Of a stretch of 64,000 bases of DNA, positions 3 through 34,030 are shown in pieces. Under the pieces are notes generated by a model. The model was not told where the DNA came from and ran no database searches. It was given only the letters and a program-made list of their open reading frames with translations. Numbering within the stretch: position 1 is the first letter of the stretch; each line of letters opens with the position of its first letter. The stretch spans positions 7,797 to 71,796 of the forward strand of contig JAEEYV010000027.1 in assembly GCA_016288295.1 (NCBI GenBank), written 5' to 3'. Made by a program: the position numbers and the translations under genes. The DNA is from Alphaproteobacteria bacterium. Lineage in GTDB: Bacteria; Pseudomonadota; Alphaproteobacteria; RF32; CAG-239.

Positions 3-137
3 GTCAAACATCAAACATCTCAAGGATTAGAAAAGGGAGCTCGCGGACTAGGTAAATTTGTTAGAAAAACTGGTAGTAAAATGGTCGCAGGTATTAAGCG
101 TTTTAGAGGATCTGGTAGTGGTGGAAGTTCTGCTTAA
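3..137 (+). CDS. 3' end of an ORF that starts upstream of the window; product unknown (Gly/Ser-rich tail ...RFRGSGSGGSSA*)
   Basis: Frame 3 is open from the window edge to TAA at 135-137. The SD (ggggg, 166-170) and ATG (179) of the next same-strand gene follow closely. Confidence 0.3.
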   Translation, partial: VKHQTSQGLEKGARGLGKFVRKTGSKMVAGIKRFRGSGSGGSSA

Positions 138-178: not shown

Positions 179-3169
179 ATGACTAGAAAAAAGATAGGCA
201 TAAACAAATTGATTAAAGCAATCGTAAATATGGCGATATTGTTAGGATTTGTTTTGTGTGCTAATGATGCAATTGCTGCTTATGATTCACCTAACCTGTT
301 TATTCAAGGCAAAATGTCAGAATGTGCAAAACAAAAAAGAGGCGGAGCAACTTGTTTAAAAGAATTGAATAAGAAATCTTGCATTAACACCACACCTTTT
401 ACTCCCATGGGGGGGGTAACGTCAGAAATGTGTGCTCGTGGCAAGATTTGGTGTAGTCAAAATGATCCTCATCGCAAACACAAACGTTGCCAAAATGTGG
501 ATAGGGGCTACGTTGGAAATCACGAAGGCTATGACTATCATGCTGCTTGTGGAACTACTATACAAGCTCCTTGCGACGGAAAGATTACCAAATCACAAAA
601 AGAAGGATTGAGGTATGAGTGTACGGTATGCGGAAAAAATATTGAATATGTTTTTCATCATAATCAGTCTGCTAAAGAAAACGGAATTTATAAAAAAGGA
701 CAGAAAATCGGTGAAGCCGGTAATTTATATGGTTATCCATGTCATATGCATATTGAAATTCGATCAGGTGGCGTTTTGCTTGATCCGATGAATTCCGGTT
801 TTGATAATTATGTATGCAGTTGTGCACCACAAGAGCAACGAGTTAACAGAATGAGTTGTTTTGGTGTAGGATCAGCTAGTGACCTAACTGCCGCCGGAGA
901 ACCTCCGCTTAATCCTACAGATCCTAATAATCCCAACGAAAAAACCGTTGAACTCATGAATAATCATACAAGTTCTGGCTGTAATTATTTTGAAGTTATG
1001 TATAACTATCAACAGTTTGGATGCATATTCTGTACACCATTCAGAATCTTATTCAACACTATAAGTGTAATGGCAAAGAAAACTTATGATGTTCTGGCTC
1101 CTGCCGTTATAGGAGTGGTGCTAATCGGATTTGCAATCTGGTTAGCAATTGTTGTTATGCGCTTTGTATCACATTTTGAAACCAGGGAGCCTCGTATTTT
1201 TGTGAAGGCTATGCTCAATCAGGCCTTCAGGGTTTTGGTTGTGGTTTTGTTACTACAAGGACCTGTTGAACAACTTATGTCAATGACTCTTGACCCTATA
1301 TTTGCAACCGGATTAAAATTAGCACAAACAATCGGCGGTGAGCCTATGTCCGCATCAGGATGCGGACTTGTGGACGGTTCAACAACCTCTGCCCCCAGTA
1401 CAGCTGGCGGTGAAAATGGAGGGGAAGCGACGACATCGGGAGCTGTTCAAAGTGTAATCAACAATCCAGAAGAAGCTGGACTGTCTCCAGAAATGGGAAA
1501 TGGTATAATCTGCACAATTAAAAACACGCAAGACCAAATCATTGATATTTTGGCACTGGCTAGAGTTATGCATTGTTTGGCATGGGATAATACAACTCTG
1601 ATATTTATACCTAATTTTGCATATTTACTAACAGCATTTTTATTCTTTATTGCCGCATTTATATTAATGCTTGCATACCCATTTTTACTGGTTGACAGTA
1701 TGCTTAAGATGGCTGTTGCCATTGCTTTATTACCTGTGGCCTTGGCCGCATATGCATTCAAAATAACTTCAAAGTATTTAGCCAAGGTATTCGGTACATT
1801 TATTGATGCTATAATGACATTTATATTCTTGTCATTGGTAATTATGATTGTTACTACAATTGCAAAAGAATATGTGGGCGATATGAGACAAGCACATAAC
1901 TTTGAAGAGTTAGATGAAATAGCAAAGATTGTATGGTTTACAATTGGGGCTATTAAAATTATCTTTGTACTGTTCTTGGGATGGGCTGTATTGGATGATA
2001 TCAAGTCATTTGCAAAGAAATTTGCCGGAAGTATCGGCGGTGGTGGAGGAATCGGCGGAAGAATGAATATAGGATCTGCTGTAGGTCTTACTGCCAATAC
2101 CCTCTTAAAGAATTATGCGGTTAATCCGGCAATAAATGTCACTAAAAAAGGTGCAAAATCCGGAGCTGCATTGCTAAAAGAAAATATAAATCACGGATAT
2201 CGCAAAGTGAAGAGTTTAAGTTTCTCGTCATTGGCAAAACCAGCTACAAATGACGATGGAACTAACATGCTTGATGAAGACGGAAACCAGATGTATAAGA
2301 CCGGCGGTTCAAGTATCGGTCGGGCTTGGAATGCAGCTTTAGGTAAAATGAAGAGAGATGATCCTTCATCGTGGATCGGAGAGAAGTTTAATAAAGCCTT
2401 GAAAAAAGTAGAAGTTAATACGCATTCTCATTACAGAAGCTATGGAACCGATACAAGCGGAAATGTTATTGAAACAAAGACACAAATTAATGCTGACGGA
2501 TCAAAGACGATTGTTCAGAAGGATGATTTTGGAAGTATTTCTACAACTTATGATGAAAATGGAAATATTATAAAACAATCATCATCTCGCAATAAAATAT
2601 TGAAAAGAATCGTTAATAAGAGGGGAGAAGTTGATAATGCGACAATTGCGGCATTTGTTCAAAGTTCGCTGATGTCTCATACTAACCAACAATTGATGAT
2701 TATGGATGCGTTGATTAAATCTCGTATGCAAAACTATGTCGGTGGAACGCTGGATGACAGATTTTTATCAAGAAACATCTCCAGCAGTGTTGATGGTAAC
2801 GGAAATAGGACTATTACGATTACCCAGAAGAATGAAAATGGCACTGTTACGACGTTTTCAGCCCAATTTGTCAGAAATCGTGTTATGACCAAAGTATCGA
2901 CTATGGATAAAAACGGGAAAGGTGTTTCTTATGAAACAGACGGAATTATTCAGCGTAAATCCGTTATTGACGGAGATAAAGAAACCCGTCAATATTCCGT
3001 AGCAAATACTTATTCGAAGAGGTCTAATCATCCGGTATATATAAGCGGTGACGTATCAGCGAATATTCCGAAGCAAGATATTTTGTTCAGTCAAGACGAC
3101 ATGAAAGAGTTTGGACAGCAAGTTCAAAATGTCGGAAATAAGGCTTATACGTTCTCAGAATTTAAATAA
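179..3169 (+). CDS. Fusion protein: secreted M23/LytM-type metallopeptidase domain, polytopic VirB6/TrbL-like membrane domain, and hydrophilic C-terminal tail with YD-like repeats
   Basis: N-terminal signal-like segment. M23 zinc motifs HxxxD (HEGYD) and HxH (GYPCHMHIEIR) at aa ~115-195. aa ~290-640 has at least 6 long hydrophobic helices followed by a Gly run (GGGGGIGG), as in TrbL/VirB6. aa ~700-990 contains D-x-(D/N)-G-N motifs (TTYDENGNII, LDEDGNQMY, VDGNGNRTI). Confidence 0.6.
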   Translation: MTRKKIGINKLIKAIVNMAILLGFVLCANDAIAAYDSPNLFIQGKMSECAKQKRGGATCLKELNKKSCINTTPFTPMGGVTSEMCARGKIWCSQNDPHRKHKRCQNVDRGYVGNHEGYDYHAACGTTIQAPCDGKITKSQKEGLRYECTVCGKNIEYVFHHNQSAKENGIYKKGQKIGEAGNLYGYPCHMHIEIRSGGVLLDPMNSGFDNYVCSCAPQEQRVNRMSCFGVGSASDLTAAGEPPLNPTDPNNPNEKTVELMNNHTSSGCNYFEVMYNYQQFGCIFCTPFRILFNTISVMAKKTYDVLAPAVIGVVLIGFAIWLAIVVMRFVSHFETREPRIFVKAMLNQAFRVLVVVLLLQGPVEQLMSMTLDPIFATGLKLAQTIGGEPMSASGCGLVDGSTTSAPSTAGGENGGEATTSGAVQSVINNPEEAGLSPEMGNGIICTIKNTQDQIIDILALARVMHCLAWDNTTLIFIPNFAYLLTAFLFFIAAFILMLAYPFLLVDSMLKMAVAIALLPVALAAYAFKITSKYLAKVFGTFIDAIMTFIFLSLVIMIVTTIAKEYVGDMRQAHNFEELDEIAKIVWFTIGAIKIIFVLFLGWAVLDDIKSFAKKFAGSIGGGGGIGGRMNIGSAVGLTANTLLKNYAVNPAINVTKKGAKSGAALLKENINHGYRKVKSLSFSSLAKPATNDDGTNMLDEDGNQMYKTGGSSIGRAWNAALGKMKRDDPSSWIGEKFNKALKKVEVNTHSHYRSYGTDTSGNVIETKTQINADGSKTIVQKDDFGSISTTYDENGNIIKQSSSRNKILKRIVNKRGEVDNATIAAFVQSSLMSHTNQQLMIMDALIKSRMQNYVGGTLDDRFLSRNISSSVDGNGNRTITITQKNENGTVTTFSAQFVRNRVMTKVSTMDKNGKGVSYETDGIIQRKSVIDGDKETRQYSVANTYSKRSNHPVYISGDVSANIPKQDILFSQDDMKEFGQQVQNVGNKAYTFSEFK

Positions 3170-3324: not shown

Positions 3325-4296
3325 ATGGAAGAAATTATTTTCCCAAATCAAATCAGAATGTATAGAAGATTGCGTGGTCGTTCAATGCAGGAACTTGCTG
3401 ATCATTTGGGAGTCAGCCTGTCTGCTATTTCAAAAATAGAAAAAGGCTATCGTCGTATTGACCAAGAACAATTGGTACGTGTATCGGAATTGTTGGATTG
3501 CCCGATGCAGGATTTATTTGTAAACGAACAGAACTCTCAAGAAGAAGTTGTTTTGTCTTGGAGACGTGAACAAGAAAGACGTAACAGAATAAACGAAAGA
3601 GCTGGTCTTAAAACTTTGGGTGCTGGATTGCGTCAAATCCGTAATGAAAAGAATCTGACATTGATTGAGGTTGCGGAAAGTTCGGATATGACTTTGTCAG
3701 TTTATCACCGTATTGAAATGGGCCAACGTGAAGTTTCCGATAAGGAAATGAAGAATATTGCGAAGGCCTTATCTATGACCGTAGATGAATTAAAGTCTAC
3801 AATTAAGCAACTTGATGAAAAAGGTGCTCTGGAAGAGATTATCCAAAGAAACGACTCTAAGTATAAATTGCTTTCAAATCCTCGCGGTGCAATTGCTGCT
3901 TTTGATAATGCATCTCGTGAGAGCCAAAAACTTTCTGTATATGGTGTAGCAGGAAAAGATGGAAATGTATTAGTTGATTTTGAAAACGAATCTAAGACGG
4001 TTTCACGCCCAAGTTCTTTGATTGGTAAAAAAGATGCTTATGCTTTGAACTTATGTTCTCGTCGCTTGGGTTCGTTGTTGCCTTCTCGCTCTATTTTAGT
4101 AATTAATCCGCAAGAAGTTGCAAGTGTTGGCGATATTGCCGCTTATTATGTTAAGCCGAATGAAGTAAAAATTATCAGTATTCGCGAAGATGACAATGGA
4201 AAACTTTATGGAATCAGATGGAATCCTGATGAAAAAATCGAATTCAGCAATAACGATTTGAGTAATTTGCATAAAGTGGTGGCTATTTATCTGTAA
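3325..4296 (+). CDS. Transcriptional regulator with two XRE-type HTH domains and a C-terminal LexA/CI (S24)-like domain
   Basis: Start moved to ATG 3325 (SD agaggggg at 3313-3320). The track start at 3295 is GTG. HTH 1: IRMYRRLRGRSMQELADHLGVSLSAISKIEKG. HTH 2: LRQIRNEKNLTLIEVAESSDMTLSVYHRIEMG. The C-terminal beta-rich segment aligns by eye to the S24 fold (LCSRRLGSLLPSRSILVINP ... NEVKIISI). Confidence 0.6.
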   Translation: MEEIIFPNQIRMYRRLRGRSMQELADHLGVSLSAISKIEKGYRRIDQEQLVRVSELLDCPMQDLFVNEQNSQEEVVLSWRREQERRNRINERAGLKTLGAGLRQIRNEKNLTLIEVAESSDMTLSVYHRIEMGQREVSDKEMKNIAKALSMTVDELKSTIKQLDEKGALEEIIQRNDSKYKLLSNPRGAIAAFDNASRESQKLSVYGVAGKDGNVLVDFENESKTVSRPSSLIGKKDAYALNLCSRRLGSLLPSRSILVINPQEVASVGDIAAYYVKPNEVKIISIREDDNGKLYGIRWNPDEKIEFSNNDLSNLHKVVAIYL

Positions 4297-6463: not shown

Positions 6464-6997
6464 ATGGTGCAAGATTCTCAAGATAACAACAGCAACGGCG
6501 ATGTCTGGTTCGTCGATAATTATATTCTGTTGAAAGATTATTACGATCGTACAATTTCGCGAATTGCAGCACGTTGTGTGCGCAAGGGTAATATGGCTTT
6601 AGAAGATTATCCGTTCTATGGTTATATTTTGGACGTGCTAGAAGAAATTAGCGAGACCGGAGATTATATAATTCGTCACAAAGACTTATATCCGTATGTG
6701 GAGAAAAAAGTTGCCGGAGGTATGAACGGATTTAGGCGTACTCTGGACGAGTATAAAGAAGAATTAAGAAAAAATTCTACTCCCGATATGATTAAGAATG
6801 ATGCTCGTGAAGTTGAAAAAATGAAAGAGGCTTTAGCTGTTCCGGATAAAGCCGTAGATCCAACAGTCGGAGCCGGTATGGGCATGGAAGAGTTGATGGA
6901 AAAACTGCTTCAACAGGATAGTGAAGCAAAGGCAAAAGTGGAAGCTGAATTTGCTGAAGCAAAACAAAAAGATAACACAGAGACAGACAATAAATAA
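6464..6997 (+). CDS. Hypothetical acidic cytosolic protein (177 aa)
   Basis: SD aaggag at 6453-6458 upstream of the ATG. No TM segment or signal peptide. Charged helical C-terminus. No family recognised. Confidence 0.5.
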   Translation: MVQDSQDNNSNGDVWFVDNYILLKDYYDRTISRIAARCVRKGNMALEDYPFYGYILDVLEEISETGDYIIRHKDLYPYVEKKVAGGMNGFRRTLDEYKEELRKNSTPDMIKNDAREVEKMKEALAVPDKAVDPTVGAGMGMEELMEKLLQQDSEAKAKVEAEFAEAKQKDNTETDNK

Positions 6998-7013
6998 AAC
7001 AAAGAGCAGGCCA

Positions 7014-8282
7014 ATGTTTAACAAATTGCATTGTAGAAAGATTTTATGGTTATTGATATTCGCACTGGTATTGTCCGGATGCAGATTTCCGAACAAAAAT
7101 TTTCGTTCCAATCAACAAGCATCTAATGTTGAAGTTATTGACCCTGCTCAAAGAGCAAATATTGTTAATGAAGTTGATCCTAATATGATACGTACACCTG
7201 CAGGTGCAAGTGCATTTGATTTGGAATCGCCTCTGCGTTGCCATGTAAACTGGAATTCTCAAGAGATGATTACCACTTTGCCATATGACATGAAGGCTTT
7301 TAATCTTACAAGAAACGGTGTTGACAATCCTCTTCCTCGTTATGAAGTAACCGGTTTTTCATTCAAGAAAATGCCGGCTGAAAAAGCTTTATTAAAATTG
7401 ACCAAAGAGGCTGGTATAAAGTTAGTCGCAAAAGATGCTCCTTATCCTAATATTTCCGCAGAGAATTTACGTGGTGAGTTATCAGAGGTAATTAAGATAA
7501 TTACAGATGCAGCTGAAATATATTATACATACAATGCAGAAACAAAAACATTAACAATCGGAAGAAAAACTGATTTTACTCTATACGTTCCAAAATCTCG
7601 ACCAATTATATTGGCCTTATTGGATGTGATGAGGGGAGCCGGAATTACCGATATTACAGCCGACTGGTCTGATTATTCACTCACATTTAAAGGGGATTAT
7701 GAATTACAAAAGAAAATTCAAAAACTTTTGGATGAGTTTGAAAGTAATCCAAAATTGATTGCATATGATGTTAGTGTATTCAAGGTTATTCCACATACCG
7801 AAAATGAAGATATTGATTGGCAACAAATGTTGCAAGTATTTGATTTCGGATCTGTTAAAACAGCCAAAACCGGGGTTATCGGCAGGATATTGACAACATC
7901 AAACGAAATTAATATCGGTACTCTATACAGCTTTTTGGAGCGACAGGCTTTTGTTATTCAAATGGCTGAAGGAAAATTTGTGGTACCGAATTTGTGGATG
8001 TCACGTTTTGATATCGGAAAATGTTCCGGTGATAGAATGCCAGAAACACAGTTGTCTTTGTTGGCAAAATCTTCACTTATGCCTCAGAACAGGCTGTTTT
8101 CTGACATTACTCTTGAGGGACGTGATGGACAGATTACACAGTTCAGTATTCGTAGCAAATTGGGTGAAAACTTTTTGATTATCGGTATTCCGAATGAAAT
8201 TATTGGAGCACAACCTGATAAATCTCAAACTGTTGTTTTTATTGTCCCAAGAGTGATAAAAACAGCAAAAAAACAAAATTAG
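7014..8282 (+). CDS. Outer-membrane lipoprotein with an N0-like domain and a short, divergent secretin-like C-terminal domain
   Basis: Start moved to ATG 7014, giving MFNKLHCRKILWLLIFALVLSGC (lipobox LSG|C). The middle segment (PAEKALLKLTKEAGIKLVAKD ... TLTIGRK) resembles N0/TcpQ-type domains. The C-terminus (VSVFKVIP...DIDWQQ ... FLIIGIPNE ... TVVFIVPRVIK) follows the secretin pattern by eye. Confidence 0.4.
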   Translation: MFNKLHCRKILWLLIFALVLSGCRFPNKNFRSNQQASNVEVIDPAQRANIVNEVDPNMIRTPAGASAFDLESPLRCHVNWNSQEMITTLPYDMKAFNLTRNGVDNPLPRYEVTGFSFKKMPAEKALLKLTKEAGIKLVAKDAPYPNISAENLRGELSEVIKIITDAAEIYYTYNAETKTLTIGRKTDFTLYVPKSRPIILALLDVMRGAGITDITADWSDYSLTFKGDYELQKKIQKLLDEFESNPKLIAYDVSVFKVIPHTENEDIDWQQMLQVFDFGSVKTAKTGVIGRILTTSNEINIGTLYSFLERQAFVIQMAEGKFVVPNLWMSRFDIGKCSGDRMPETQLSLLAKSSLMPQNRLFSDITLEGRDGQITQFSIRSKLGENFLIIGIPNEIIGAQPDKSQTVVFIVPRVIKTAKKQN

Positions 8283-8302
8283 TATAGATTAAGAGGTAAA
8301 AA

Positions 8303-8947
8303 ATGGACAATACACAGATGAATAAACCACGTTTCAAAAAAGTTAAACGCCCAATCAGGCGTGCGGCTGATAATGGCGAAAACAACATGGCTGTTCCATC
8401 AAAAGCTGTAATGGATAACCCTTTTAATAATCAGAATAACAATGGACCATTTCATGCGGACAATTATCTGGAAAACGACAATCTTCCTGCTATGCAACAA
8501 GATAGTCGTCTTAATCCGTCTTTCTTGTCTGATGAAGATGTGGAAGATGCAAATCCATCAATTAAAGATCGTTTTATGGTCGGAAATTTATATACCGGAA
8601 TGGCAATGCTGGTGGCAATTATTGCTTCTTTAATTCTTGGTATATTTATAGCAAAAACTTTTTTGGATACACCTAAGACTATAATGAACGGGTTACAGGG
8701 TGTAGTGCCTAATCGCGAGGTACCTAACGGAAGGGTAAGATGCGGTAAAGCCGAAAGGAATCAAGGATGTGTTTTGTATATCATGAATCCGCAAAGGCAA
8801 GATATGGATGGTCGAGATTTTAATGATATGGCGGCGCAATTGACCGGACGGCAGAAATTTCAAGTGGAAACTGCAAATTACTCGTATGCAACCGTAAAAA
8901 TACGACCGGGGGAAATAGCACAAATAAATATTCCACCAATGCTATAA
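8303..8947 (+). CDS. Bitopic membrane protein: disordered N-terminus, one TM segment, small C-terminal periplasmic domain; unknown function
   Basis: SD agaggt lies upstream of the ATG. TM segment YTGMAMLVAIIASLILGIFIA. No family recognised. Confidence 0.5.
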   Translation: MDNTQMNKPRFKKVKRPIRRAADNGENNMAVPSKAVMDNPFNNQNNNGPFHADNYLENDNLPAMQQDSRLNPSFLSDEDVEDANPSIKDRFMVGNLYTGMAMLVAIIASLILGIFIAKTFLDTPKTIMNGLQGVVPNREVPNGRVRCGKAERNQGCVLYIMNPQRQDMDGRDFNDMAAQLTGRQKFQVETANYSYATVKIRPGEIAQINIPPML

Positions 8948-8982: not shown

Positions 8983-9951
8983 TTAAGTAACTTCGGTAAC
9001 CGCACGCAGGTTGCCATCGCGATTGATTTGTACAACTCGCAATTTATGATGCATTTCTTCTATAGTTTTGCGGCGATCAAGTGTCGGGTATGAGTGCAAT
9101 ATACGATCAGCAAAAGCTTCATATGCAGCACTGGAACTTTCAGCGTGAATGGTTGCCAGGCAGTTATCATGTCCTGATCCCATAAGCTCCCAAATTGCAC
9201 CGGCGTTGCCGGTTGAAATTTCACCGCCAATAATAGCATCTGGGGTAAAACGAACTACCAAGTCAATAATGCCTTTGTAGTCAAACTGGTTAGTTTGTCC
9301 GGTACGAGACATTACGATATGGACACGATTGGGATGTGGAACTAAAAGCTCGCGTGCATCTTCAATCGTAATAACACGTTTGTGAATATCCAAAATCTTA
9401 AGCAGGTTGTTCAAAAACGTGGTTTTACCAGTTGCTGTCGCGCCACTGACCAGAATGTGATCACCGCGTTTGATGCTAAGCAAAAGACGCTCATACGGAT
9501 CTTCTGGATCTTTTATGTTTTTCAACGGGTTAATATGGTGTAATTGCTCACCTTGTTTTAATCCATAGTCTCCAAGACCAAAAGCAACATCATCACTATG
9601 AACACGGATGGCAATAGCCACGCCTCCGGCGATATCGTCTTCATCATACATTACGTTCTTGCCGCATATAGCTGAAAAACGGTGTTCTCCGGGAATGGTA
9701 GCATAAACTACGGGAGTGCCACCAATCGGGTCGAATGGAAGTTCATATGTGTTTGCAACAATGTAAAGAAGGTCGGTCAAATATTCCTTGGTTAGTTTTT
9801 CGTCTTTGTACATAACCCAAGGATAGGCTCTTTTGCCGCGAAGGCGCAACCATACCTGCCCTGAGCGATTGATTGCAACTTCCTCAATGTTTTCCTGATT
9901 ATACCAGTAAGCCAGAGGGCGTAAAACTGATTCTAATACTTCAAAACTCAT
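8983..9951 (-). CDS. virB11: VirB11-family T4SS traffic ATPase
   Basis: 322 aa. Walker A VSGATATGKTT, then RVITIEDARELL, and His-box-like CLATIHAES. SD gggaga upstream of the ATG. Last gene of the T4SS operon. Confidence 0.85.
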   Translation of the reverse strand: MSFEVLESVLRPLAYWYNQENIEEVAINRSGQVWLRLRGKRAYPWVMYKDEKLTKEYLTDLLYIVANTYELPFDPIGGTPVVYATIPGEHRFSAICGKNVMYDEDDIAGGVAIAIRVHSDDVAFGLGDYGLKQGEQLHHINPLKNIKDPEDPYERLLLSIKRGDHILVSGATATGKTTFLNNLLKILDIHKRVITIEDARELLVPHPNRVHIVMSRTGQTNQFDYKGIIDLVVRFTPDAIIGGEISTGNAGAIWELMGSGHDNCLATIHAESSSAAYEAFADRILHSYPTLDRRKTIEEMHHKLRVVQINRDGNLRAVTEVT

Positions 9952-9963
9952 ACTTTTCTCCCT

Positions 9964-12900
9964 CTAAAACAGTTGTGGAACATCGCTGTCTTCTTCATTG
10001 TTTCGATTGTTCTGGTTGTTGTATCTGCTACTGTTGCTTTGTGACGGCGGTGGCGGTGGCGGGGTAGCTCCAACGTTGGTTCTCCCCTGGTTATCCGGAG
10101 CATATGTTACTGGGGCAGAAACCAGTGCAGGAGAAGAATCACCACTTGAAGAGTTACGTTCTTCTCCGTGTAATTTTTTATAATCCTCTTCCGTAAATAA
10201 AGAATTTTCATATTCATGACTTTCATTAGCTCCTCCTTTTTTGGCTTCATCACGAAAATCATCCATGGTTTTAAGCCATAAATCAACTTTAGGAAAAACA
10301 ATAATTCTGGTGCCGGCAGGAACAACTACGACAGATTTTGTCTTCATGTAATCATTAAGCATATCCTCAAACATTTGTTTGGTGTCGTCTAAGAAATTTT
10401 GTCGTGCATCATTGGTGGCCTGTTGTTTTGAAGTTTCAGAGCTGTTTTCTCCTCCTTTAGAACTGTCTTCGGTTGAGAACAGAACACTTATGCCATTGGT
10501 AATAATTGATGTTACTAACGGCGTTGAATATTTTTTAACCAGTTGACGATCCAGATAACCCAATACCCCTCCTCGACCTTGAGCATCGCCAGTTTTAGCC
10601 GAACTCAAATCAAACATAACACCTTTAGGAGTAATCAATCTTTCCCAGATAATACTGATACGAGCAGAATTCTGACCTCCACTCTCTCCTCCGGTACTAC
10701 CGATTAAATGACTACCAGCAGGGATAATAACGTTTCGACCATCTTCAGCATATACGTTACGTTCAACGTAGGCAGTAACCGGTGCCTCATGTTCAGTATC
10801 AATAGGTCTTGAAATTACTGCCGGAATCGGTTTGTCAGCTAAAATCATCATATCCATATCAACCGGAAGGGTTGAAACAACCTTAGCAATTCCCCAATCT
10901 TTTTGTTTGCCATCAAAATATTCACGACTGAAAGTAGTACTTTTTGAACCGACAAACATACCTTGGCGACGAATTGCTTGGGCTTGTTGATTTGCAACTT
11001 GTTGTCCCGGTGTAGCAGGCGTTTGTTCAAGGCAATCATCACCGAGGCCATGTGCTTCGCAATATCCCTTATTTCCAGGAACAAAGACATTTGATGCTCC
11101 GGGTTTTGGAGCTACCGGTGTTCCGGGTTCTTCCGGCACCTCATCTAAAGGAATTCTTATACGACGTCCGCGAACTTCTCCTGTCTCAGGATCATGCACA
11201 AGATCTCCCTCCACAACGCCTTCAATTTTTCCGGTTTTAGGATTGATTACTTTATCTTGCACAATATCACCAAGATAATTTCCATTTAAATCAAGAGCAA
11301 TATTTGCAGAACGTTTATAATCTCTTTCTTCCAGAGGACGACTACCAACTTTCGGAAGGGGTTCAGAAGAAGATGGTTTTTCTTTTTCGGGATGTTTGAA
11401 CCAATCAAGATGACCGATTACAACTCCGCTTGCATCAACAGCTTTTCCGTCTTTTTCAAGAATTGCAACAATATTTCCATTCTCATCGACAACTTGTCCT
11501 TTCCCATTGTCATATCCCATTGGATTTCCTTCTTTATCATAGACCAGTTTTCTTTTATCAGGTATATAATATTGTAACGGAGTAGCTTTAGCAATAATCT
11601 CCCCCTCCGGATTGATAATATTTCCCTCTTCACCAAGGCTTCCGACAACTTCACCGGTTTGTGAAATTACGTTACCATTTAGCATTAACTCACCAATGAT
11701 ATCATTGTTTTTATTACGTATATGAAAATCACGATTTCCGCGCCCCAAAAGTTCCTGTGAATTGCTTACGGCAAAACCGTGAATTGATTTGGCCAAGTGT
11801 TGATTTGAAAATGATATAATCCCACCGTCAGGGGCAATATAACCTATTGCATTGTTATTGTCGTTATATACGTAAATATCATACAAAGCGTAGCCTATGT
11901 TTTTGTTACCGGACTTAACATTTCCATCAAAATCAACTGAACCTATATTTTTGCCCTGGGAGTCAATAACTTCGCCTTTGTCATTAACTGTTCCCATTAA
12001 TCTGTTAGCATTATTAAAAGCATACCTGTATCTGAACAACATTCCTAAATGAGAGGATGTTTTTGAGTTAACACTATCATCCGGCATAACGTATCCAATA
12101 TCCTGATTATTGTTGTCGATAACTCTACCGTCTAACATACTGCGCCCGACAATTTTATTGTTGAAATCAATAACCGGAACAATCGATACTATTTTGCCGA
12201 TGAGAGATTTTTGCTTATTATAAAGACGGTTTTGACTGTTAATACAGCCGAGATTATCATTTGCATAATTAAGGACACGACCGTCAGATGATGTTGTCCC
12301 GACAGGTTTACCGCCAAAATCAATAATAACTCCGCGAGAAACACCAAAGCCGATAATCGCACCATTATCAGAAATCACTTGAGAATTAGGTAATATTCTA
12401 CCCATATTAACCTCACGGTAGTTCTTAACCTCACCTGTCGGCGTAATTGTTCCAACTAATTCGCATTTGTCATTAACTACTGACATAAAATCAACAGCTT
12501 CACCAACAGCAGCACCACTGTTATCAAAAATTATGCCACTTGAGTTGACTTTGCCGATTGTTGAAGCTCCACTATCCTTGACTTGTCCTTGATTATCTAT
12601 AATGCCAATTATTTTTCCGTCATATGACATTGCCAGACGAGCCGGAGAGCCAAAACCATTAACCGGCATATATGAAGCTTTTTCAGACCAAGCAACAACA
12701 CTATTATCAGGCAATACCTTGCCTATGGGGTGCAATCCTTTATTTAAAACCTGGTTTCCGTCTGCCAAAATGCCTACACTTTGTCCAGTAGAGGTAACTG
12801 CATAAACAGTATTGATTTTACCTCCAAGTACGGAATTATGTTCGTCAATATTGTAACCATATTGGGTTAGATGTCCTCCTTGAGATATCCCGTTGTTAAT

Positions 12901-14274
12901 AATATCACCATTAGGCGAGATTGCACCGACAGATTTTCCTCCAAGGTCAAAAATTGAACCGAGAGAAAATGCGTTACCGTCTATTTTACCATCTGAGGTA
13001 TAAACATATCCAAGCGGTGAAATTATGCGGTTGTCATTACCGACGGATATTGTGCTATTAATACCGGTGATTCCAAGTGCTTGGTTGTTACCATTAAATA
13101 TAACTTTATTTTTTAAGACTGCACCTATAATGCTTCCGCTACTACTAACTGCGAAATCACCTCGTATTGTGCCTAAAGGAGCACCACCAACAGTTACGAC
13201 TTGTCCATTTTTAAGAGAATGACCTCGCAATTCTCCGCGATAATCAAAAATTGGACCTGTTTGAATTAGTTGGCCAATTTGTTTGCCTTCTTTGTCATAT
13301 ATAACATTCCATGGACCAAGCTGTCCTATAATATCTGTACCTTTAGCAATCTTTCCTTCCGGCATAACCCGACCTAAATATTGTCCGGAACTATCTGCCG
13401 CAGTTGATGCAATATCGACCATAAAACCTATTATATTGCCTTTTGTATCAGCAATATTTCCATCAGATTGGAGATAACCGATTAATTTTTCACCATTGAT
13501 TACCTCACCATTAAATGTAACCAATCCAATATATTTTCCGGCATTGCTAAATGCGTATCCTGAACGAACTACACTACCGATAACTTTATTGTCTGAATTA
13601 TATGCAAGGCCGTTTGCCTTAATAAAACCAATCTGTTTGCCATCAAAATCAGTTATTTTTCCGCCCGGAGAAACGTTGCCGATAAATTTTCCTGCTAAAT
13701 CAATAACCATTTTTGAGGAAACAAGGCGTCCATCTAAAACGTAATCATTACCTGAACGTCTGTAAGCATATCCGTCAGATGAAACAAAACCTATATTTTG
13801 CCCTTGAAGGTTGGTATATACACCGTCCCCTGTAAGCCGTCCTACCGTTTTGCCGTCATCTGCATAAATCAGCCCAGGAAATAATACTGCACCTAAAATA
13901 TCAAATTTTTCATCAACAACCAAGCCATTAGGAAGAACTTTGCCGACAATTTTTCCGGTTGCCAGGCGTACAGCTCCGTCAGAGCTAACTTTTCCCAACA
14001 TACGATTATCATTACCTATGGCAACACCTTGCGGAACAACACCGCCGATAAGTTTGCCGGATGAGTTAAGAATCAAACTATCTGCCGTAATATTCCCAAT
14101 AAGGCGATTGTCAAAACTTACAACTTTGCCATCTGGAATAACTTTTCCAATTAATGCACCATTAAAATCAATAGCAGTAATTTCTTGTGCCGACGCAAGG
14201 TTAACATTGGCAAAAATCATTGCAAAAACAAAAAGCAATATGTTTTTAAATTTGCTGTTTACCTTTGACGTCAA
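9964..14274 (-). CDS. virB10: Giant VirB10 homolog: signal/anchor, ~900 aa of D-x-x-G-x-x-I-G repeats, Pro-rich linker, VirB10/TrbI C-terminal domain, and a Pro/Asn-rich tail
   Basis: TTG start 8 nt after the SD ggagg. VirB10 core at about nt 10270-10960 (…IIPAGSHLIGSTGG…GDAQGRGGVLGYLDRQLVKKY…TRIIVFPKVDLWL). Pro-rich segments (EKPSSSEPLPKVGSRP, EEPGTPVAPKPG). Repeats at about nt 11390-14190. Confidence 0.8.
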   Translation of the reverse strand: MTSKVNSKFKNILLFVFAMIFANVNLASAQEITAIDFNGALIGKVIPDGKVVSFDNRLIGNITADSLILNSSGKLIGGVVPQGVAIGNDNRMLGKVSSDGAVRLATGKIVGKVLPNGLVVDEKFDILGAVLFPGLIYADDGKTVGRLTGDGVYTNLQGQNIGFVSSDGYAYRRSGNDYVLDGRLVSSKMVIDLAGKFIGNVSPGGKITDFDGKQIGFIKANGLAYNSDNKVIGSVVRSGYAFSNAGKYIGLVTFNGEVINGEKLIGYLQSDGNIADTKGNIIGFMVDIASTAADSSGQYLGRVMPEGKIAKGTDIIGQLGPWNVIYDKEGKQIGQLIQTGPIFDYRGELRGHSLKNGQVVTVGGAPLGTIRGDFAVSSSGSIIGAVLKNKVIFNGNNQALGITGINSTISVGNDNRIISPLGYVYTSDGKIDGNAFSLGSIFDLGGKSVGAISPNGDIINNGISQGGHLTQYGYNIDEHNSVLGGKINTVYAVTSTGQSVGILADGNQVLNKGLHPIGKVLPDNSVVAWSEKASYMPVNGFGSPARLAMSYDGKIIGIIDNQGQVKDSGASTIGKVNSSGIIFDNSGAAVGEAVDFMSVVNDKCELVGTITPTGEVKNYREVNMGRILPNSQVISDNGAIIGFGVSRGVIIDFGGKPVGTTSSDGRVLNYANDNLGCINSQNRLYNKQKSLIGKIVSIVPVIDFNNKIVGRSMLDGRVIDNNNQDIGYVMPDDSVNSKTSSHLGMLFRYRYAFNNANRLMGTVNDKGEVIDSQGKNIGSVDFDGNVKSGNKNIGYALYDIYVYNDNNNAIGYIAPDGGIISFSNQHLAKSIHGFAVSNSQELLGRGNRDFHIRNKNNDIIGELMLNGNVISQTGEVVGSLGEEGNIINPEGEIIAKATPLQYYIPDKRKLVYDKEGNPMGYDNGKGQVVDENGNIVAILEKDGKAVDASGVVIGHLDWFKHPEKEKPSSSEPLPKVGSRPLEERDYKRSANIALDLNGNYLGDIVQDKVINPKTGKIEGVVEGDLVHDPETGEVRGRRIRIPLDEVPEEPGTPVAPKPGASNVFVPGNKGYCEAHGLGDDCLEQTPATPGQQVANQQAQAIRRQGMFVGSKSTTFSREYFDGKQKDWGIAKVVSTLPVDMDMMILADKPIPAVISRPIDTEHEAPVTAYVERNVYAEDGRNVIIPAGSHLIGSTGGESGGQNSARISIIWERLITPKGVMFDLSSAKTGDAQGRGGVLGYLDRQLVKKYSTPLVTSIITNGISVLFSTEDSSKGGENSSETSKQQATNDARQNFLDDTKQMFEDMLNDYMKTKSVVVVPAGTRIIVFPKVDLWLKTMDDFRDEAKKGGANESHEYENSLFTEEDYKKLHGEERNSSSGDSSPALVSAPVTYAPDNQGRTNVGATPPPPPPSQSNSSRYNNQNNRNNEEDSDVPQLF

Positions 14275-14276
14275 TT

Positions 14277-17200
14277 TTAGTTCCTCCGATTTTTTGCTAC
14301 TTCTTGCAAAGCATATCCGGCAACACGTTTATCCAGATTAATAAATGAGCCGTTACTCTTCATATACCCGATAATTTTATTGTTGGTATCAACTACTGAT
14401 CCGTCAGAGGCCAGGCGACCAACGTATCGACCGGTATTACCGAGAATAGTGGTTCCAATTTTATAAATACGCCCCAAAATTTCATCTTCGTTATCTACCG
14501 CTAAATCGGTTGATAAAACTCGACCGATGACAGATCCACGATGATCAATAACCATGCCATTGGCTGCAATATAACCAACAACTTTGTCCTCATTGTTTAT
14601 AACTAAATCACCATCAACGATTTCACCTATAAGTTTTCCTGAATTATTGAGCACATTACCGTCAGACAAAGATCTACCCATTTTTATGTTCGTAGTATCG
14701 ATAATTGAACCGTCAGGCATAACCGAGCCAACAACTTTTCCGGCAAAATCAATAACTGTTCCACGTTTAGCAAGACTCAAGTTCTTATCTGTAGAACCTC
14801 CGGGAAGAATAGCTGTTATGTTTTTACCATTTAAATCAATGACATCTCCGACCGAGTTTGTGTAACCCTTGTAAGATCCCCAAACATCCATAACAATTCC
14901 TTCGGGAATTATCTCTCCGATTATAACAGATTTGTTATTCAAAACCTTGCTATCAGGAGTGCTACGACCAACGGTTTTTCCATCAAGAGCAATTATGCGA
15001 CCATCAGATAAACCATAACCAAGGAAGGAACCATCATAACCTATTGCTGACCCTCTTCTTATAATGCCACCTTTAAGATTGCCTTTGTTGTCAAAATAGT
15101 ATCCTTTGGCATCAAGGCGACCGAGTTTTTCACCAAAACGATTTATTACTTCACTATTATAAACTGCCATACCTATGATTTTGCCACTAAAATCAGCAAC
15201 TTTTCCGGTAAATGCTTGGTACCCAGGAACATTATTGTAAAATGCGGCGCCATCACCATAAAGCTTACCAACAGATGCACCTTTACCATCGTAAACATTG
15301 CCGTCAGGAAATAAATGCCCTAATATTTTGCCCTGGTGATCAATTAGTGTGGTTCTGTTCGGCATTGCAACGCCAATAATTTTGCTGTTTTCATCAATAA
15401 CAGCATTGTTAGGCAACAAACGCCCCGAAGTCTGTCCACGGATAGGGACACGTGCTGCAGAATTAACCATACCGATAAAGTTACCTTCTAAATCGTAGGC
15501 ATTGGTGTTTTGCAGTATATGACCAATGTACGCACCTTTTTTATCAAAAATGTCACCATATGTGCCAACACAACCAACCGGTTTGGCTTGTTGCGACAAA
15601 ACAAGACCGTTCTCGTTTACCAGACCCAACAGGTTACCATCATAAGAAACGGCAACTCCTGAACGGGCAACTCCACCTATAATATCACCTTTTTCATTTA
15701 ATACTGTACCATCAGGATTAATGCAACCAACGTAGTTGCCATTTTGGCGGACTATGCCATCGGTTTCAACTTCGCCGATTTTGGTACACGAATCGTCAAA
15801 AACAGGACCTGGAACTACAACTTCACCAATATAATTACCACTTTCATCAACTACTATGCCATCGACATTAACTTTATAGCCGGTTTCTTGATTTGATTTA
15901 CGAACAATACCGTCTTTTTCAAGATACCCAATATTTTTGCACCCTTGGCCGACTACAAGACCACCGCGGACCATACGTGCAACAATATTGGAGCCATTAG
16001 GATTTTTTACCAACCCATTGGATAATACTCTACCTACAATCTGCTTTTGACTATTCTCAATTGTACCATTATTGTTAACAATTCCAAGTACTTCTCCTTT
16101 GGGAGTAATAGGTATCATTTGGTCTTGAACAAGATGTCCGACGATATTAGACGTATTAGTCACTATACGACCGTCTGCATCTATTGAACCAATGACATTA
16201 CCGTTGACATCAAAAACTTCACCATCATTTCCAATATAACCGGTAATTTTGTTGTTTTTATCCAACAGAAGTTTGGCAAAATCGCCAACCTCTCCTATTT
16301 CTTGTCCATCAGCAGTAATAATCTTGCCTGATGGGGCCATTTTTCCTAAAACATTGCCGTTAAAATCAATTGCATTGCCATTTTCATCAACATAACCGAT
16401 AACTTTACCGCTTTTGTCGTACGCCAGTTGTTTGGGAGTTGTACCCGTACTGCCAATAATCCTCCCATCGTCATCAACTACCGTACCATCATTAAGTAAT
16501 TTACCAATTTTATTACCGTCAAAATCATGGACAACACCTTGATCATCAACATATCCAATAGCATTACCTTTTTGACCGTAAGCAAGGCGATATCCTTGTT
16601 CTTTGGTATCACCAACTTTACCGATTACATTACCTCTGTCATCAACAATCGCACCGTCTTCAAGTAACTTACCGATTTCTCTACCGTTCACATCGCGGAC
16701 GGAACCTTGATCATCAACAAAACCTATGATTTTGCCATCAGGACTATATGCCAGACGGTAATTTTTCTCATTATCACCACCGGATTTACCAATTACATTG
16801 CCTCTGTCATCGACAATCGTACCGTCTTCAAGTAACTTACCGATTTCTCTACCATTCACATCATGGACGGAACCTTGATCATCAACAAAACCTATGATTT
16901 TGCCATCAGCATCACGAGCGAGATGAAATCCTTTTTCGTTAATTTCTCCGGCCTTTCCGATAATATTACCTTCATTATCAACAATTGAACCATCGTTACG
17001 CATATTGCCAATTTCTTCACCATTTATGTCATATACAATACCGTTATCATCAATATAACCTATGTTATTGCCATTGCTATCATAAGCTAAAGCTTTAACA
17101 TTTGATTCATTATCAACATTAGCTATAACCTTGCCATTTGCATCAACAATCGCCCCGCCAGAAGATACTTTGCCGACTACTTTGCCATCAAAATCATGAA

Positions 17201-19187: not shown

Positions 19188-20785
19188 TGTGTCCTAACTA
19201 CGCTACAAAATACACCACTTCTACCAAGACGACTGCAAACACCATCGCCTTCTTCAAGAGATTTGACCGGTCCTATACGGAGATGGAACAGTTCTTTACC
19301 CTGACCATCCGCCGGTGCATCAACAGAAAAGAACGGATCATACTTGCCAAGAATCTTGGAATGTTTATTTGATACATCATCCCATAAATTTTCCAGATTT
19401 TCGACATTGGCATCAGTTCCCAATTCTATGGAAATATTTGAACCACTACTGTCTACAAAGCCTGAACCATATCGATATTGATTAGCGATAGATGAGGCCG
19501 CAGGGTCAAATTGTTGCGTATTCTGAATACGATGCATTTTTGAATAATCAAAGTCAGCCGCACCACCAGAGCCGGGGAACATGGCTCCCCCATTACCCAT
19601 ATCTTCACTATAATCTCCTGTCGGTTCATTGGCCGCGCCATTTACAGGACCGGAACTGAAATCAGGATATGAAGCTCCGCCGGCCTTTGATTGAGCGCCA
19701 GCCGGAATTTTTGCGCCACGGTCCCATTCTTTATCAGTAACATCTTTGGCGTAACTTGCATCTTCAAGTCCTGCGTCATCAGAACGACGAAGTTTAAGGC
19801 AAACAATCCTTTTTCCGTTTCTTAAAACCATATCGCCTATTCCCTCAACGATGATTAAGCGATTATTAGGGCCTTTAGTACGAAATCCGACTGGAACCTC
19901 CATTCTTTCAACAATGAGAGAAACAACCGGCCTTTGGGTCATATAAAGGGCTCTTTTTCCCAAATCAATGTATGTAAAAATGTCATCTCGCCATACTCGT
20001 TCGGGAGCGATGACAACATCATCTGCGTTGGGTACATAAACCTCAATATCAAAACGAAATTGCGTGGGATCAAGAGGAATGTTTTCGACCCAATTATTTT
20101 TTTGATCCCGTTTAGTAAAAGTTGAATCAACCGATTTTCCCCCTTTACCAAAATAAGACGTAGCATTTATTCGACCACCGCCGCCGGACGACATGGCTTT
20201 GGCGCCACCATTATTGCCACCGACCACGTCAATATCAACAATGGCATTGGTTAAACGTTCTGTATTAACGCCTTCACTGCGCGCATAAAAGACATAACGG
20301 TTGCCTGAGCGCCCAAAAACAACGATATTGGTATCAACACCGACATTAGCTCCGGCAGTTGGATAAAGCAATAAGGTATTAGGTCCGGAAATTTGCCCAT
20401 CAAATGTGGAATTATCACCAATATAAATATCTTCAACCATTTCCCACTCGGGAAAATTTATCAGTGTAATCATACCTTCACGCAGGCGCAAAGGCAAAAC
20501 TAAATCCGGAGACCAATAGTATTTCGAATAAGCCGGTTTGCTTTGGCCTTCGCCAAGATTTTGCAAAGGATCAAGCCAGGCACTTTGGATCATTCCCAAA
20601 GAGTTGAACCCCATGTAACTCATATCCATAGGTTGATACATTCCCTGCGATTGTGCCGTAGCCTGATCTGCTCCATTAGCCACGGATTGAGCATTGCTCA
20701 TTTCCGTAAACAGAAAACTGCTTAAAACAACAATTGCAGCCCCTGCACATTTAAAAAATATAGCTCTATTCATATTATTGTACAT
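19184..20785 (-). CDS. virB9: VirB9/CagX-family outer-membrane core protein with a C-terminal SPOR-like domain
   Basis: Signal peptide. VirB9 N-domain (PLRLREGMITLINFPEWEMVEDIYIGD…NIVVFGRSGNRYVFYARS). C-domain (VWRDDIFTYIDLG…LIIVEGIGDMVLRNGKRIVCLKL). The last ~80 aa end in …ELFHLRIGPVKSLEEGDGVCSRLGRSGVFCSVV. Confidence 0.8.
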   Translation of the reverse strand: MYNNMNRAIFFKCAGAAIVVLSSFLFTEMSNAQSVANGADQATAQSQGMYQPMDMSYMGFNSLGMIQSAWLDPLQNLGEGQSKPAYSKYYWSPDLVLPLRLREGMITLINFPEWEMVEDIYIGDNSTFDGQISGPNTLLLYPTAGANVGVDTNIVVFGRSGNRYVFYARSEGVNTERLTNAIVDIDVVGGNNGGAKAMSSGGGGRINATSYFGKGGKSVDSTFTKRDQKNNWVENIPLDPTQFRFDIEVYVPNADDVVIAPERVWRDDIFTYIDLGKRALYMTQRPVVSLIVERMEVPVGFRTKGPNNRLIIVEGIGDMVLRNGKRIVCLKLRRSDDAGLEDASYAKDVTDKEWDRGAKIPAGAQSKAGGASYPDFSSGPVNGAANEPTGDYSEDMGNGGAMFPGSGGAADFDYSKMHRIQNTQQFDPAASSIANQYRYGSGFVDSSGSNISIELGTDANVENLENLWDDVSNKHSKILGKYDPFFSVDAPADGQGKELFHLRIGPVKSLEEGDGVCSRLGRSGVFCSVVRTQ

Positions 20786-21506
20786 TATTTAACCTCAAAG
20801 AATAACTGGTTACTGTGAAGCCTGCCGGATTTTTCAGGCGTTCTTTATATTTAACTCTTTTGTGCCTATATGTTATTTTTAAAGAAGCAGTCCAGTATTT
20901 AATGATTGGCTCTTCTGCATCGGGGAACATATCACGAGTTTCGTATTCAACCTGCCAAATTCCCGTACTCAATTCGTTTGCTGTTACAATACGAACATCA
21001 CGAACCATATGACGTTCTTTAATCAACTCAAGAGCTCGACTAGCCGTGTTTTTTGAGAAATCATCATAGACAGTAGGAGATGACATTTCCTGAATAGCTC
21101 CGCCCGGAGACCATCTGGCTTCCGCCTCCAAGATGTCTTTATTAAAACTACTGCGCATTAAAACGTACTGACGAACAAAAACTTCAGTTATGCTTCTTAC
21201 TTCCGCAAGATTGCGTTTTAACGGTTGGATATTGTAGACTTGCTCTTCTTTGTTTTGGAAATTTAGCAGAAACGGCTCTATTCTGTGTAGCGGAATAACC
21301 TGAGATATTGCCAACAAAAGCACAATATTACAGCAGATGCTTACCGCCATAATGATAGCGAATGCGCGAGCCGTCCATAGATATCTTTTTTCGGCGACAT
21401 TAGCAACAAATACGTCTGATGATGAATACGAATCGCGCTTGCGACGAACACTGCTGTTGCCTAAAAGGCGCTGATTACTATTATTATTTCCTAACTGTTG
21501 AGCCAT
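20775..21506 (-). CDS. virB8: VirB8-family protein (paralog 2)
   Basis: Start moved to ATG 21506 (SD agggg 5 nt upstream). The track start at 21521 is TTG. N-terminal TM segment, then an NTF2-like periplasmic domain with FVRQYVLMRSSFN and WTASLKITY. Confidence 0.75.
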   Translation of the reverse strand: MAQQLGNNNSNQRLLGNSSVRRKRDSYSSSDVFVANVAEKRYLWTARAFAIIMAVSICCNIVLLLAISQVIPLHRIEPFLLNFQNKEEQVYNIQPLKRNLAEVRSITEVFVRQYVLMRSSFNKDILEAEARWSPGGAIQEMSSPTVYDDFSKNTASRALELIKERHMVRDVRIVTANELSTGIWQVEYETRDMFPDAEEPIIKYWTASLKITYRHKRVKYKERLKNPAGFTVTSYSLRLNNVQ

Positions 21507-21527
21507 GATAACCCCTAACAAAGCCGG

Positions 21528-21716
21528 CTAAATTGTTTCAATAAACCAATCCGGCAAGGATTGAGGGAGTTCGACCTGAAGGCAAGCACATGGGGAGAGT
21601 TTGAGCTCATCAACGTCTTTACCGATTTCAACCGGCTCCGGCTCGTAGTATGATCCCATTAGCCCGCACCCAGCCAAAAACACGATGACAAGCAATAATA
21701 CTGCTTTTTTAATCAT
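21528..21716 (-). CDS. Small lipoprotein, VirB7-like by size and position
   Basis: 62 aa. MIKKAVLLLVIVFLAGC has lipobox LAG|C. The gene sits between the two virB8 paralogs, upstream of virB9. Confidence 0.55.
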   Translation of the reverse strand: MIKKAVLLLVIVFLAGCGLMGSYYEPEPVEIGKDVDELKLSPCACLQVELPQSLPDWFIETI

Positions 21717-21806
21717 AAGAATATTCCTCTGTTAACTATAGTTAGTTAGACTTTAGTATCTTTTTTTACAAAAGTCTAAATATAACAAACTTATTAACAG
21801 GCAATA

Positions 21807-34024: not shown

Positions 34025-34030
34025 TATATT

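Follow-up and report, generated by a model that had tools for sequence, protein, structure and literature searches.

Among the closest described counterparts of the system reported here are the rvh type IV secretion systems (T4SSs) of Rickettsiales, known from RvhB6a-e of Rickettsia and VirB6-1 to -4 of Anaplasma and Ehrlichia. The RvhB6a-e proteins of Rickettsia are encoded by five tandem extended genes and comprise 674-1154 amino acids (aa) (PMC2653234). According to a 2025 review, no function is known for the large domains that extended VirB6 proteins have in addition to their core, and VirB1 is a soluble periplasmic cleaver of glycan strands in all known Gram-negative homologs (PMC12857230). 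Here we describe a gene in a 64,000-nucleotide (nt) stretch of alphaproteobacterial DNA, hence termed the window (assembly GCA_016288295.1, contig JAEEYV010000027.1, positions 7,797 to 71,796; lineage RF32, CAG-239). Its predicted product joins a peptidase domain of the M23 family to a VirB6/TrbL core and a C-terminal tail. We propose, with a probability of roughly 0.6, that this protein is the last of several tandem extended VirB6 paralogs of a chromosomal VirB-type T4SS and would carry its own VirB1-like wall opener in cis; the proposal draws on sequence comparison and structure models.

The locus appears similar to rvh in its gene arrangement and in a shared Pfam family. Both, here as seen in related loci, have several tandem VirB6 proteins of ~430-1400 aa that combine a TrbL/VirB6 core with large hydrophilic extensions, a VirB6 operon apart from virB8-B11, and duplicated scaffold genes (here two VirB8 and three VirB2), and both are alphaproteobacterial and chromosomal. 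In contrast to rvh, the last paralog carries a predicted peptidoglycan hydrolase, and the hosts are free-living gut bacteria instead of obligate intracellular ones. The SLT-type VirB1 enzymes (VirB1 of A. tumefaciens and Brucella, Cag4 of H. pylori; GAMMA class) share with the fusion family the proposed opening of the sacculus, and some fusion orthologs have an SLT domain; the window protein differs as a predicted peptide cleaver that lacks SLT and is covalently part of VirB6. The VirB1-like proteins of Gram-positive T4SSs (PrgK of pCF10, with LytM, muramidase and CHAP domains; TraG of pIP501; Orf14 of Tn916; CwlT of ICEBs1) are likewise membrane-tethered modular sets of peptidases and glycosidases, and the LytM domain of PrgK is a Foldseek match (8s0u) to the M23 domain of the window. 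However, each of them is a protein of its own, anchored by a single helix and not fused to VirB6, and their hosts are monoderm.

Two further comparisons concern the carrier. TrwI of R388 (7O3V, 8RT9) has seven long helices, five of them hydrophobic, in the same order and fold as the window core (TM-score 0.62-0.67), but it consists of ~340 residues without an N-terminal enzyme or a C-terminal domain; its structure serves as a model for where the fused domains would sit. FlgJ-type proteins unite a flagellar rod cap with a muramidase or, in some lineages, with an M23 peptidase. In principle, these proteins and the spike-lysozyme VgrG3 from type VI secretion systems (T6SS) would be alike in placing a wall hydrolase covalently on a structural subunit that crosses the wall, and the VgrG3-like_C module itself is present in fusion orthologs. 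The machines are different and the carrier domains unrelated.

The fusion gene is preceded by a Shine-Dalgarno-like sequence, GGGGGAAG, at 165-172, 6 nt 5' of its start. The first protein search yielded 46 full-length homologs with 29-71% identity, and a family profile search of 1.84 billion cluster representatives (50%-identity clusters) yielded 381 proteins at E<=1e-30. The open reading frame (ORF) is clearly a real, conserved gene. The predicted layout of the protein is a Sec signal peptide, an M23 domain, a flexible linker, a seven-helix VirB6/TrbL core and a folded beta-rich tail (Table 1); the full-length AlphaFold2 (AF2) model has a mean predicted local distance difference test score (pLDDT) of 76. 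The core is flanked by about 270 aa on its N-terminal side and about 375 aa on its C-terminal side, as in extended VirB6 proteins, which have a core with large hydrophilic domains. The hydrophobic segment of the signal peptide was read at aa 14-34, and an xDAxA motif is kept in the family consensus. C49, C59, C68 and C85 of the following Cys-rich subdomain are invariant in alignments; its sub-profile, a hidden Markov model (HMM), matches 41 of 151 representatives, and the subdomain may regulate or occlude the M23 domain. Twenty cysteines fall in the exported N-terminal part and in the core loop, and none in the tail. The linker region is gap-rich and variable in length in the family alignment. 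Scans for promoters and terminators near the gene gave nothing informative.

The Pfam Peptidase_M23 (PF01551) match covers aa 114-203 and positions 2-96 of the 96 profile positions (E 1e-10, 42.1 bits, cut-off 28.7). The predicted zinc ligands are H115 and D119, in HEGYD, and H191, in HMH; H161 and H189 are the predicted catalytic histidines. All five residues are invariant in an alignment of 24 sequences. Among 45 homologs with identity down to 32%, no variation occurs at H115, D119, H161 or H191, and conservation of H189 is at least 90%. The top match of the family profile among PDB sequences is the Vibrio DD-endopeptidase ShyA (6u2a, E 2.6e-13), followed by TagE, a Neisseria M23 peptidase, Csd3 and LytM; SpoIIQ, EnvC and DipM are also among the matches. 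The HxxxD, H and HxH motifs align with those of ShyA, and so the failure of the catalytic residues to align, which the earlier sequence-only reading of this DNA had named as grounds for abandoning its fusion claim, was not observed. The domain is modelled with pLDDT of ~80-93, and its Foldseek matches include LytM 1qwy (rmsd 2.9 A, 102 columns), PrgK LytM 8s0u (2.7 A, 104 columns) and 6jn7. The domain is thus a predicted M23 zinc endopeptidase with a complete active site, and it should be exported to the periplasm because a signal peptide precedes it.

The VirB6 core is assigned by both sequence and predicted fold. The Pfam TrbL/VirB6 (PF04610) match at aa 453-591 is barely above the cut-off (E 7e-6, 26.4 bits vs 25.9), and orthologs score better (42.1 bits in P0107 and 36.3 bits in P0133). 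Both Pfam families that the sequence-only reading had singled out for a check therefore pass their curated cut-offs (42.1 vs 28.7 and 26.4 vs 25.9 bits). In the AF2 model the core helices span aa 285-331, 338-360, 363-385, 437-470, 480-525, 528-574 and 580-619. Hydrophobic segments lie at about aa 305-330, 340-360, 478-500, 511-527, 540-562 and 584-604, in agreement with the at least five helices expected of VirB6, and the large loop between them (aa 361-476), in the place of the periplasmic loop expected after helix 2 or 3, carries the invariant residues C395, C445 and C466. In TrwI, the VirB6 protein of R388, five of the seven long helices (alpha1, alpha2 and alpha5-alpha7) are hydrophobic (PMC9259494). 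The top Foldseek match of the window core in PDB is this protein (8rt9_F, E 1.2e-3, probability 1.0, target TM-score 0.62), and a second TrwI structure, 7o3v_J, gives a target TM-score of 0.67. A sequence profile search of PDB did not recover TrwI, the identity to which is 10-15%. The hydrophobic region is thus of VirB6 type by fold and does not point to an unrelated transporter family, the other outcome the earlier reading had considered damaging.

The sequence-only reading described the fusion protein as the only VirB6 and as a gene separated from the main operon on the opposite strand. The strand is correct, and a search of six-frame translations with a core HMM detected no second VirB6 core in the window. 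The uniqueness is nevertheless an artefact of the window edge, because the window opens 178 nt 5' of the gene, inside another ORF, and the relatives have at least three paralogs directly upstream. By synteny, the ORF fragment at the edge would encode the C-terminal tail of the VirB6 paralog before it; in relatives, 0-60 nt lie between the end of a VirB6-like gene and the fusion gene. In every relative with enough flanking sequence, the fusion gene is not an isolated gene but the last gene of a conserved operon, which consists of a putative alpha/beta-hydrolase (~284 aa), a 60-aa two-helix protein, at least three polytopic proteins and the fusion gene. It is followed by a double helix-turn-helix (HTH) regulator, four conserved genes without assigned function, and next, encoded on the other strand, VirB11 and VirB10. 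The order of VirB6 paralogs, fusion gene, HTH gene and VirB11/VirB10 was the same in all six relative loci for which gene tables were read.

The polytopic proteins encoded upstream are paralogous to the fusion core (BLASTP E 3e-30, 3e-18 and 1e-6); two of them match Pfam TrbL at 24.6 and 26.3 bits, and they share motifs with the core. At least two tandem core-bearing genes were found in 103 of 111 fetched loci, and the complete arrays contain four paralogs in 56 loci, five in 11 and six in 5. The HTH gene comes after the fusion gene in nearly all related loci, and further counts refer to the 99 informative loci with the HTH gene behind the last paralog; a few of these were fetched twice. In these related loci the fusion gene is the last of three to six, usually four, tandem VirB6 paralogs, and the HTH gene lies 3' of it in 99/99, usually at a distance of 110-170 nt. 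The gap between the fusion gene and the next ORF in the window is 126 nt.

The content of the N-terminal slot varies between relatives. The family was sorted by sub-HMMs for M23, core and tail, and representatives were checked with Pfam. Since the 150 best representatives were ranked by a profile that contains M23, the M23 share among them is inflated, and the locus-based count is the fairer figure. The observed variants are M23; M23 with T6SS_VgrG3-like_C, a lysozyme-like peptidoglycan hydrolase (P0067, L043); VgrG3-like_C alone (P0075; P0098, E 7e-18); M23 with SLT (P0116, SLT E 1e-17, with E-S, GxMQ and AYNxG-like motifs); SLT alone; and none. Among the 99 loci, the last paralog has the architecture M23-core-tail in 49, M23-VgrG3C-core-tail in 16, M23-core in 13, M23-SLT-core-tail in one and SLT-core-tail in one; in 19 loci it has no detectable hydrolase. 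M23 occurs without a second hydrolase module in 62/99. A hydrolase module is thus present in 80/99 last paralogs versus 0/331 other paralogs. This restriction to the last paralog, together with the occurrence of SLT, the enzyme type of VirB1, in the same slot, is the strongest evidence for a VirB1-like job.

The fusion protein presumably serves the VirB cluster of the window, which encodes VirB11, VirB10, a beta-flower protein, VirB9-SPOR, two VirB8, four secreted proteins without a known family, VirB4, VirB3 and three VirB2. In a scan of the cluster ORFs other than the short VirB3 ORF, no polytopic protein besides VirB2 was found. The fusion gene is thus the co-encoded VirB6 of a cluster that otherwise has none, and the synteny is kept in relatives. 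Hydrolases were searched with Pfam on real ORFs of at least 100 aa and with custom SLT and VgrG3C HMMs on 644 six-frame reading frames, and no SLT/VirB1-like, lysozyme-like or second M23 domain was detected elsewhere in the 64-kb window. The earlier claim that no VirB1 is present is borne out to this extent, with no SLT in ORFs of at least 100 aa or in the six frames of the 64 kb. Pfam found no SLT domain in the fusion protein either, and it can therefore be at most a functional analogue of VirB1. The related suggestion that M23 replaces VirB1 is upheld as to the fusion with an intact active site, and it gains from the SLT and VgrG3-like modules in the same slot of orthologs; its premise of VirB1 absence holds for the 64 kb only.

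Beyond domain content, fold and synteny, every mechanistic step of the proposed model is one that we infer. The N-terminal part would be exported by Sec, and the VirB6 core would insert with its N-terminus in the periplasm. Tethered by a flexible linker of ~30 residues, the M23 domain would be held at the base of the VirB6 stalk, where the machine crosses the sacculus, and could cut peptide cross-links locally; it resembles the DD-endopeptidases ShyA, TagE and Csd3 most. Such cuts could open a gap for an unusually bulky complex of stalk and outer-membrane proteins (VirB10 of 1436 aa and its 1636-aa partner). The role of the soluble VirB1 lytic transglycosylases would be performed here in cis, at fixed stoichiometry, by a modular slot that in orthologs holds M23, M23 with a VgrG3-like lysozyme, M23 with SLT, SLT alone or nothing.

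Several observations weigh against this model. The lack of a detectable module in 19/99 loci means that the function is either dispensable or supplied from elsewhere. Often VirB1 itself is not essential, latency or auto-inhibition is common among M23 enzymes, and the best-known role of the VgrG3-like module is that of an antibacterial effector domain. An LprI-like lysozyme-inhibitor gene is adjacent in a few loci, which would fit a weapon. The TrbL score is marginal, and the Foldseek E-value for TrwI (1.2e-3) is modest. Finally, a VirB1-like SLT enzyme could be encoded elsewhere in the genome; the VirB1 candidate of Rickettsia is unlinked from the other vir genes (PMC2653234).

Could the hydrolase cassette be aimed at other cells? 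It could act as an offensive or penetration device of a contact-dependent interbacterial T4SS, either released from its VirB6 anchor, as VirB1* is from VirB1, or placed at the apparatus tip, and it would then degrade a neighbour's wall. The orthologs with T6SS_VgrG3-like_C, known from an antibacterial T6SS effector, are consistent with this, as are the disordered linker at aa 239-266, which could be a processing site, and the lack of a relaxase or coupling protein near the T4SS. Secreted proteins of ~140 aa, which look like immunity proteins, are encoded in a few loci on the opposite strand directly after fusion genes with SLT or VgrG3-like modules. One of them matches Pfam LprI, a lysozyme inhibitor (E 1.2e-4), and the remaining ones agree with it in size, signal peptide and Cys pattern. 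However, the Sec signal peptide and the position N-terminal of the membrane helices would direct the cassette to the cell's own periplasm and not into the T4SS channel, and no known T4SS effector signal was identified. No LprI-like gene follows the fusion gene in the window, and there, as in most loci, the HTH gene lies ~110-170 nt behind and leaves no room for an immunity gene. Gaps of more than 400 nt, with room for an extra gene, occur in only 3 of the 16 VgrG3-type loci, and both that were inspected (L043, L044) contain a small ORF. We therefore regard an offensive device as unlikely. A broader version, in which the interchangeable M23, SLT and VgrG3-like cassettes would also breach the wall of a target bacterium, as a T4SS counterpart of the T6SS VgrG3 spike or of a phage tail lysin with the LprI-like protein as immunity, seems quite unlikely. 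In a related, speculative version the four to six paralogs would form a heteromeric stalk with the enzyme on one protomer only.

The other two alternatives question the enzyme and the secretion role, respectively. The M23 domain could be a non-catalytic scaffold that binds peptidoglycan or a partner such as VirB10 or VirB9-SPOR, or that activates another hydrolase. Degenerate LytM domains act as scaffolds or activators in SpoIIQ, EnvC, NlpD and DipM, and three of these (SpoIIQ, EnvC and DipM) were recovered by the profile search. Such scaffold-type domains have lost zinc-binding or catalytic residues. In the fusion family, by contrast, H115, D119, H161 and H191 are invariant and H189 nearly so in the 45 sequences down to 32% identity, and the best matches (ShyA, TagE, the Neisseria M23 peptidase) are active endopeptidases. 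Two published findings would suit a scaffold: for PrgK of the pCF10 T4SS, the LytM domain is reported to have a regulatory and not a catalytic role (PMC12857230), and VirB10 is known to bind to the N-terminus of VirB6 (PMC6120205). On balance, a non-catalytic domain appears decidedly improbable. It is highly improbable that the protein is a housekeeping wall endopeptidase anchored by an exapted VirB6-like membrane domain and has no part in type IV secretion. The name given by NCBI to one family member, only "M23 family metallopeptidase", and the location on the strand opposite to the virB2-B11 cluster would agree with such an enzyme. Nevertheless, the gene closes a tandem VirB6 array and is the sole source of VirB6 for the virB cluster; its order relative to VirB11 and VirB10 does not differ between the six loci read, and the array with the HTH gene recurs in the roughly 100 related loci checked.

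If the VirB6-borne wall opener is accepted, one extension of an extended VirB6 protein would receive a clear, though predicted, enzymatic assignment. Extended VirB6 itself is already known; the new element is its proposed built-in modular VirB1-like function. The lineage appears to hard-wire a peptidoglycan hydrolase into the subunit at the base of the stalk, usually a peptidase and sometimes a peptidase with a glycosidase, and the point of attachment suggests where and when the wall opens as the T4SS assembles. Modules are swapped at one position of one paralog, which constitutes a natural experiment and supports the functional equivalence of the M23, SLT and lysozyme modules in this role. 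The searchable literature gave no account of an M23-VirB6 or SLT-VirB6 fusion, nor of a T4SS in the RF32/CAG-239 gut Alphaproteobacteria, although one may have been published elsewhere.

The C-terminal tail is family-specific and was detected in many relatives by the sub-HMM classification. Modelled alone with AF2, it reaches a pLDDT of 87.2 and a predicted TM-score of 0.80, which describes a folded domain and not low-complexity filler. Its Foldseek matches in PDB are only generic beta-meander proteins (OspA, lectins) with TM-scores <=0.22. The sequence-only reading had presented the protein as a 996-aa combination of M23, TrbL/VirB6 and a hydrophilic tail of YD-like motifs. The ORF, both domains and the tail stand, and the YD label has to be dropped: an RHS/YD identity (PF05593) was rejected with no Pfam match at E<=1 and Foldseek probabilities <=0.12 for RHS 4igl and teneurin. 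A relationship to the beta-flower repeats of the giant neighbouring proteins was also rejected, as the tail HMM matches no other protein of the window. The N-terminus of VirB6 is periplasmic, and the classical topology has a cytoplasmic C-terminus (PMC6120205); in R388 VirB6 only alpha1 and alpha2 are within the membrane (PMC9259494). By analogy, the tail would be located in the cytoplasm under the classical topology and in the periplasm under the R388 structure.

The host is an uncultured ruminant-gut alphaproteobacterium. The informative genome hits are all metagenome-assembled genomes from the guts of humans, ruminants, birds and other animals, labelled as Alphaproteobacteria, "uncultured Azospirillum sp.", Rhodospirillales or Candidatus Scatocola; the few other taxon labels look like mis-binned contigs. 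Gut metagenomes of cattle and sheep contain the DNA of the window itself. The system appears to be chromosomal and spread across the lineage. A plasmid origin was considered and rejected: tblastn against 72,556 plasmids gave no match, and the window contains the housekeeping genes cmk, rpsA, rsmE and a cbpA-like gene as well as a tRNA (56319..56406). Pfam scans found no VirD4 coupling protein or relaxase in the window. Neither is present near the T4SS, the flanks are of housekeeping type, and the system is probably not a conjugative element.

Table 1. Coordinates of features in the window and in related loci (positions preceded by an L number refer to the respective related locus; aa, residues of the fusion protein).
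Feature	Position	Strand	Remarks
Open 3' end of upstream ORF	3..137	+	Frame 3 open from base 3; stop 135-137; ends ...GSGSGGSSA*
M23-VirB6-tail gene	179..3169	+	Complete; ATG start; 996 aa
Signal peptide, aa 1-33	179..277	+	Basic N-region, hydrophobic core, AIA|A; predicted cleavage site
Cys-rich N-terminal subdomain, aa 35-99	281..475	+	Conserved in some family members
M23/LytM metallopeptidase domain, aa 100-215 (predicted)	476..823	+	Pfam PF01551, family profile vs PDB, Foldseek
Codon of H115	521-523	+	
Codon of D119	533-535	+	
Codon of H161	659-661	+	
Codon of H189	743-745	+	
Codon of H191	749-751	+	
Linker, aa 239-266	893..976	+	Pro/Asn/Asp-rich spacer from hydrolase to VirB6 core; AF2 pLDDT <50
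VirB6/TrbL core, aa 270-620 (predicted)	986..2038	+	Seven long helices and Cys-containing loop 386-436
Gly-rich connector, aa 621-689	2039..2245	+	Mostly low confidence; pLDDT <50 at aa 621-669
Family-specific C-terminal domain, aa 690-996	2246..3166	+	Two antiparallel beta-meander sheets with helices between; no Cys
Double-HTH (XRE-type) regulator	3325..4296	+	Pfam HTH_3 twice; ORF from GTG 3295, ATG of homologs at 3325
Highly acidic protein, 683 aa	4348..6399	+	11-lysine run, repeated GQDWEWEYEE motifs; no Pfam family
Three further conserved unknown genes	6464..8947		
VirB-type T4SS cluster	8983..34375	-	Pfam and NCBIfam
VirB10 homolog, 1436 aa	9964..14274	-	TrbI domain only C-terminal; many Bflower_2/Bflower repeats before it
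1636-aa protein	14277..19187	-	Almost wholly beta-flower/DUF3659 repeats
VirB9/CagX homolog	19184..20785	-	Ends in SPOR domain, E 1.9e-4
Two tandem VirB8, three tandem VirB2/TrbC pilins, and VirB3	20775..22553, 32836..34375	-	
Four secreted proteins (675, 217, 417, 1283 aa)	22566..30360	-	No known family; usual position of VirB5, B6, B7
Type IVb pilus cluster	36336..47482	+	R64 thin-pilus/bundle-forming-pilus-like; adjoins T4SS
Small secreted ~140-aa protein	L043 12967..13389	-	
Small secreted ~140-aa proteins	L034 13415..14320, L035 15627..16468, L036 13384..14254, L044 12951..13364		

The ORFs at 22566..30360 were tried as candidates for a second VirB6 and rejected, since none is polytopic and none matches the core HMM; the 217-aa protein among them is a candidate VirB5. 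The beta-flower repeats are not confined to the giant proteins of the T4SS cluster; the tails of some VirB6 paralogs in relatives carry Bflower_2 repeats (P0167, L036). SPOR domains bind denuded glycan strands of peptidoglycan, and the one on VirB9 therefore suggests a further engagement of the T4SS with the cell wall.

The operon of the relatives opens with the ~284-aa protein, a weak match to Abhydrolase_1 (E 6e-5), and the 60-aa protein with two transmembrane helices (L008 455..1567, L010 411..1520); the two genes fall outside the window and are without an assigned part in the T4SS. The contigs of many relatives, from independent assemblies (L008, L009, L010, L011, L014, L015, L018, L020 and others) start ~0.4 kb 5' of the VirB6 operon. 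These near-identical assembly breaks suggest a repeat upstream of the operon; Rfam detected no rRNA or tRNA in the retained sequence that would explain them.

The pilus cluster contains genes for a TcpQ-like protein, a secretin, PilO, a protein without assigned function, a T2SSE ATPase, a T2SSF platform protein and two PilS/bundlin prepilins, followed by a membrane protein of the Sulfatase family. Together with the T4SS it draws attention to a large conserved rvh-like secretion system and a type IVb pilus in common uncultured Alphaproteobacteria of gut and rumen. The gene for the 683-aa acidic protein is kept at the same place after the HTH gene in relatives (L008 12525..14567).

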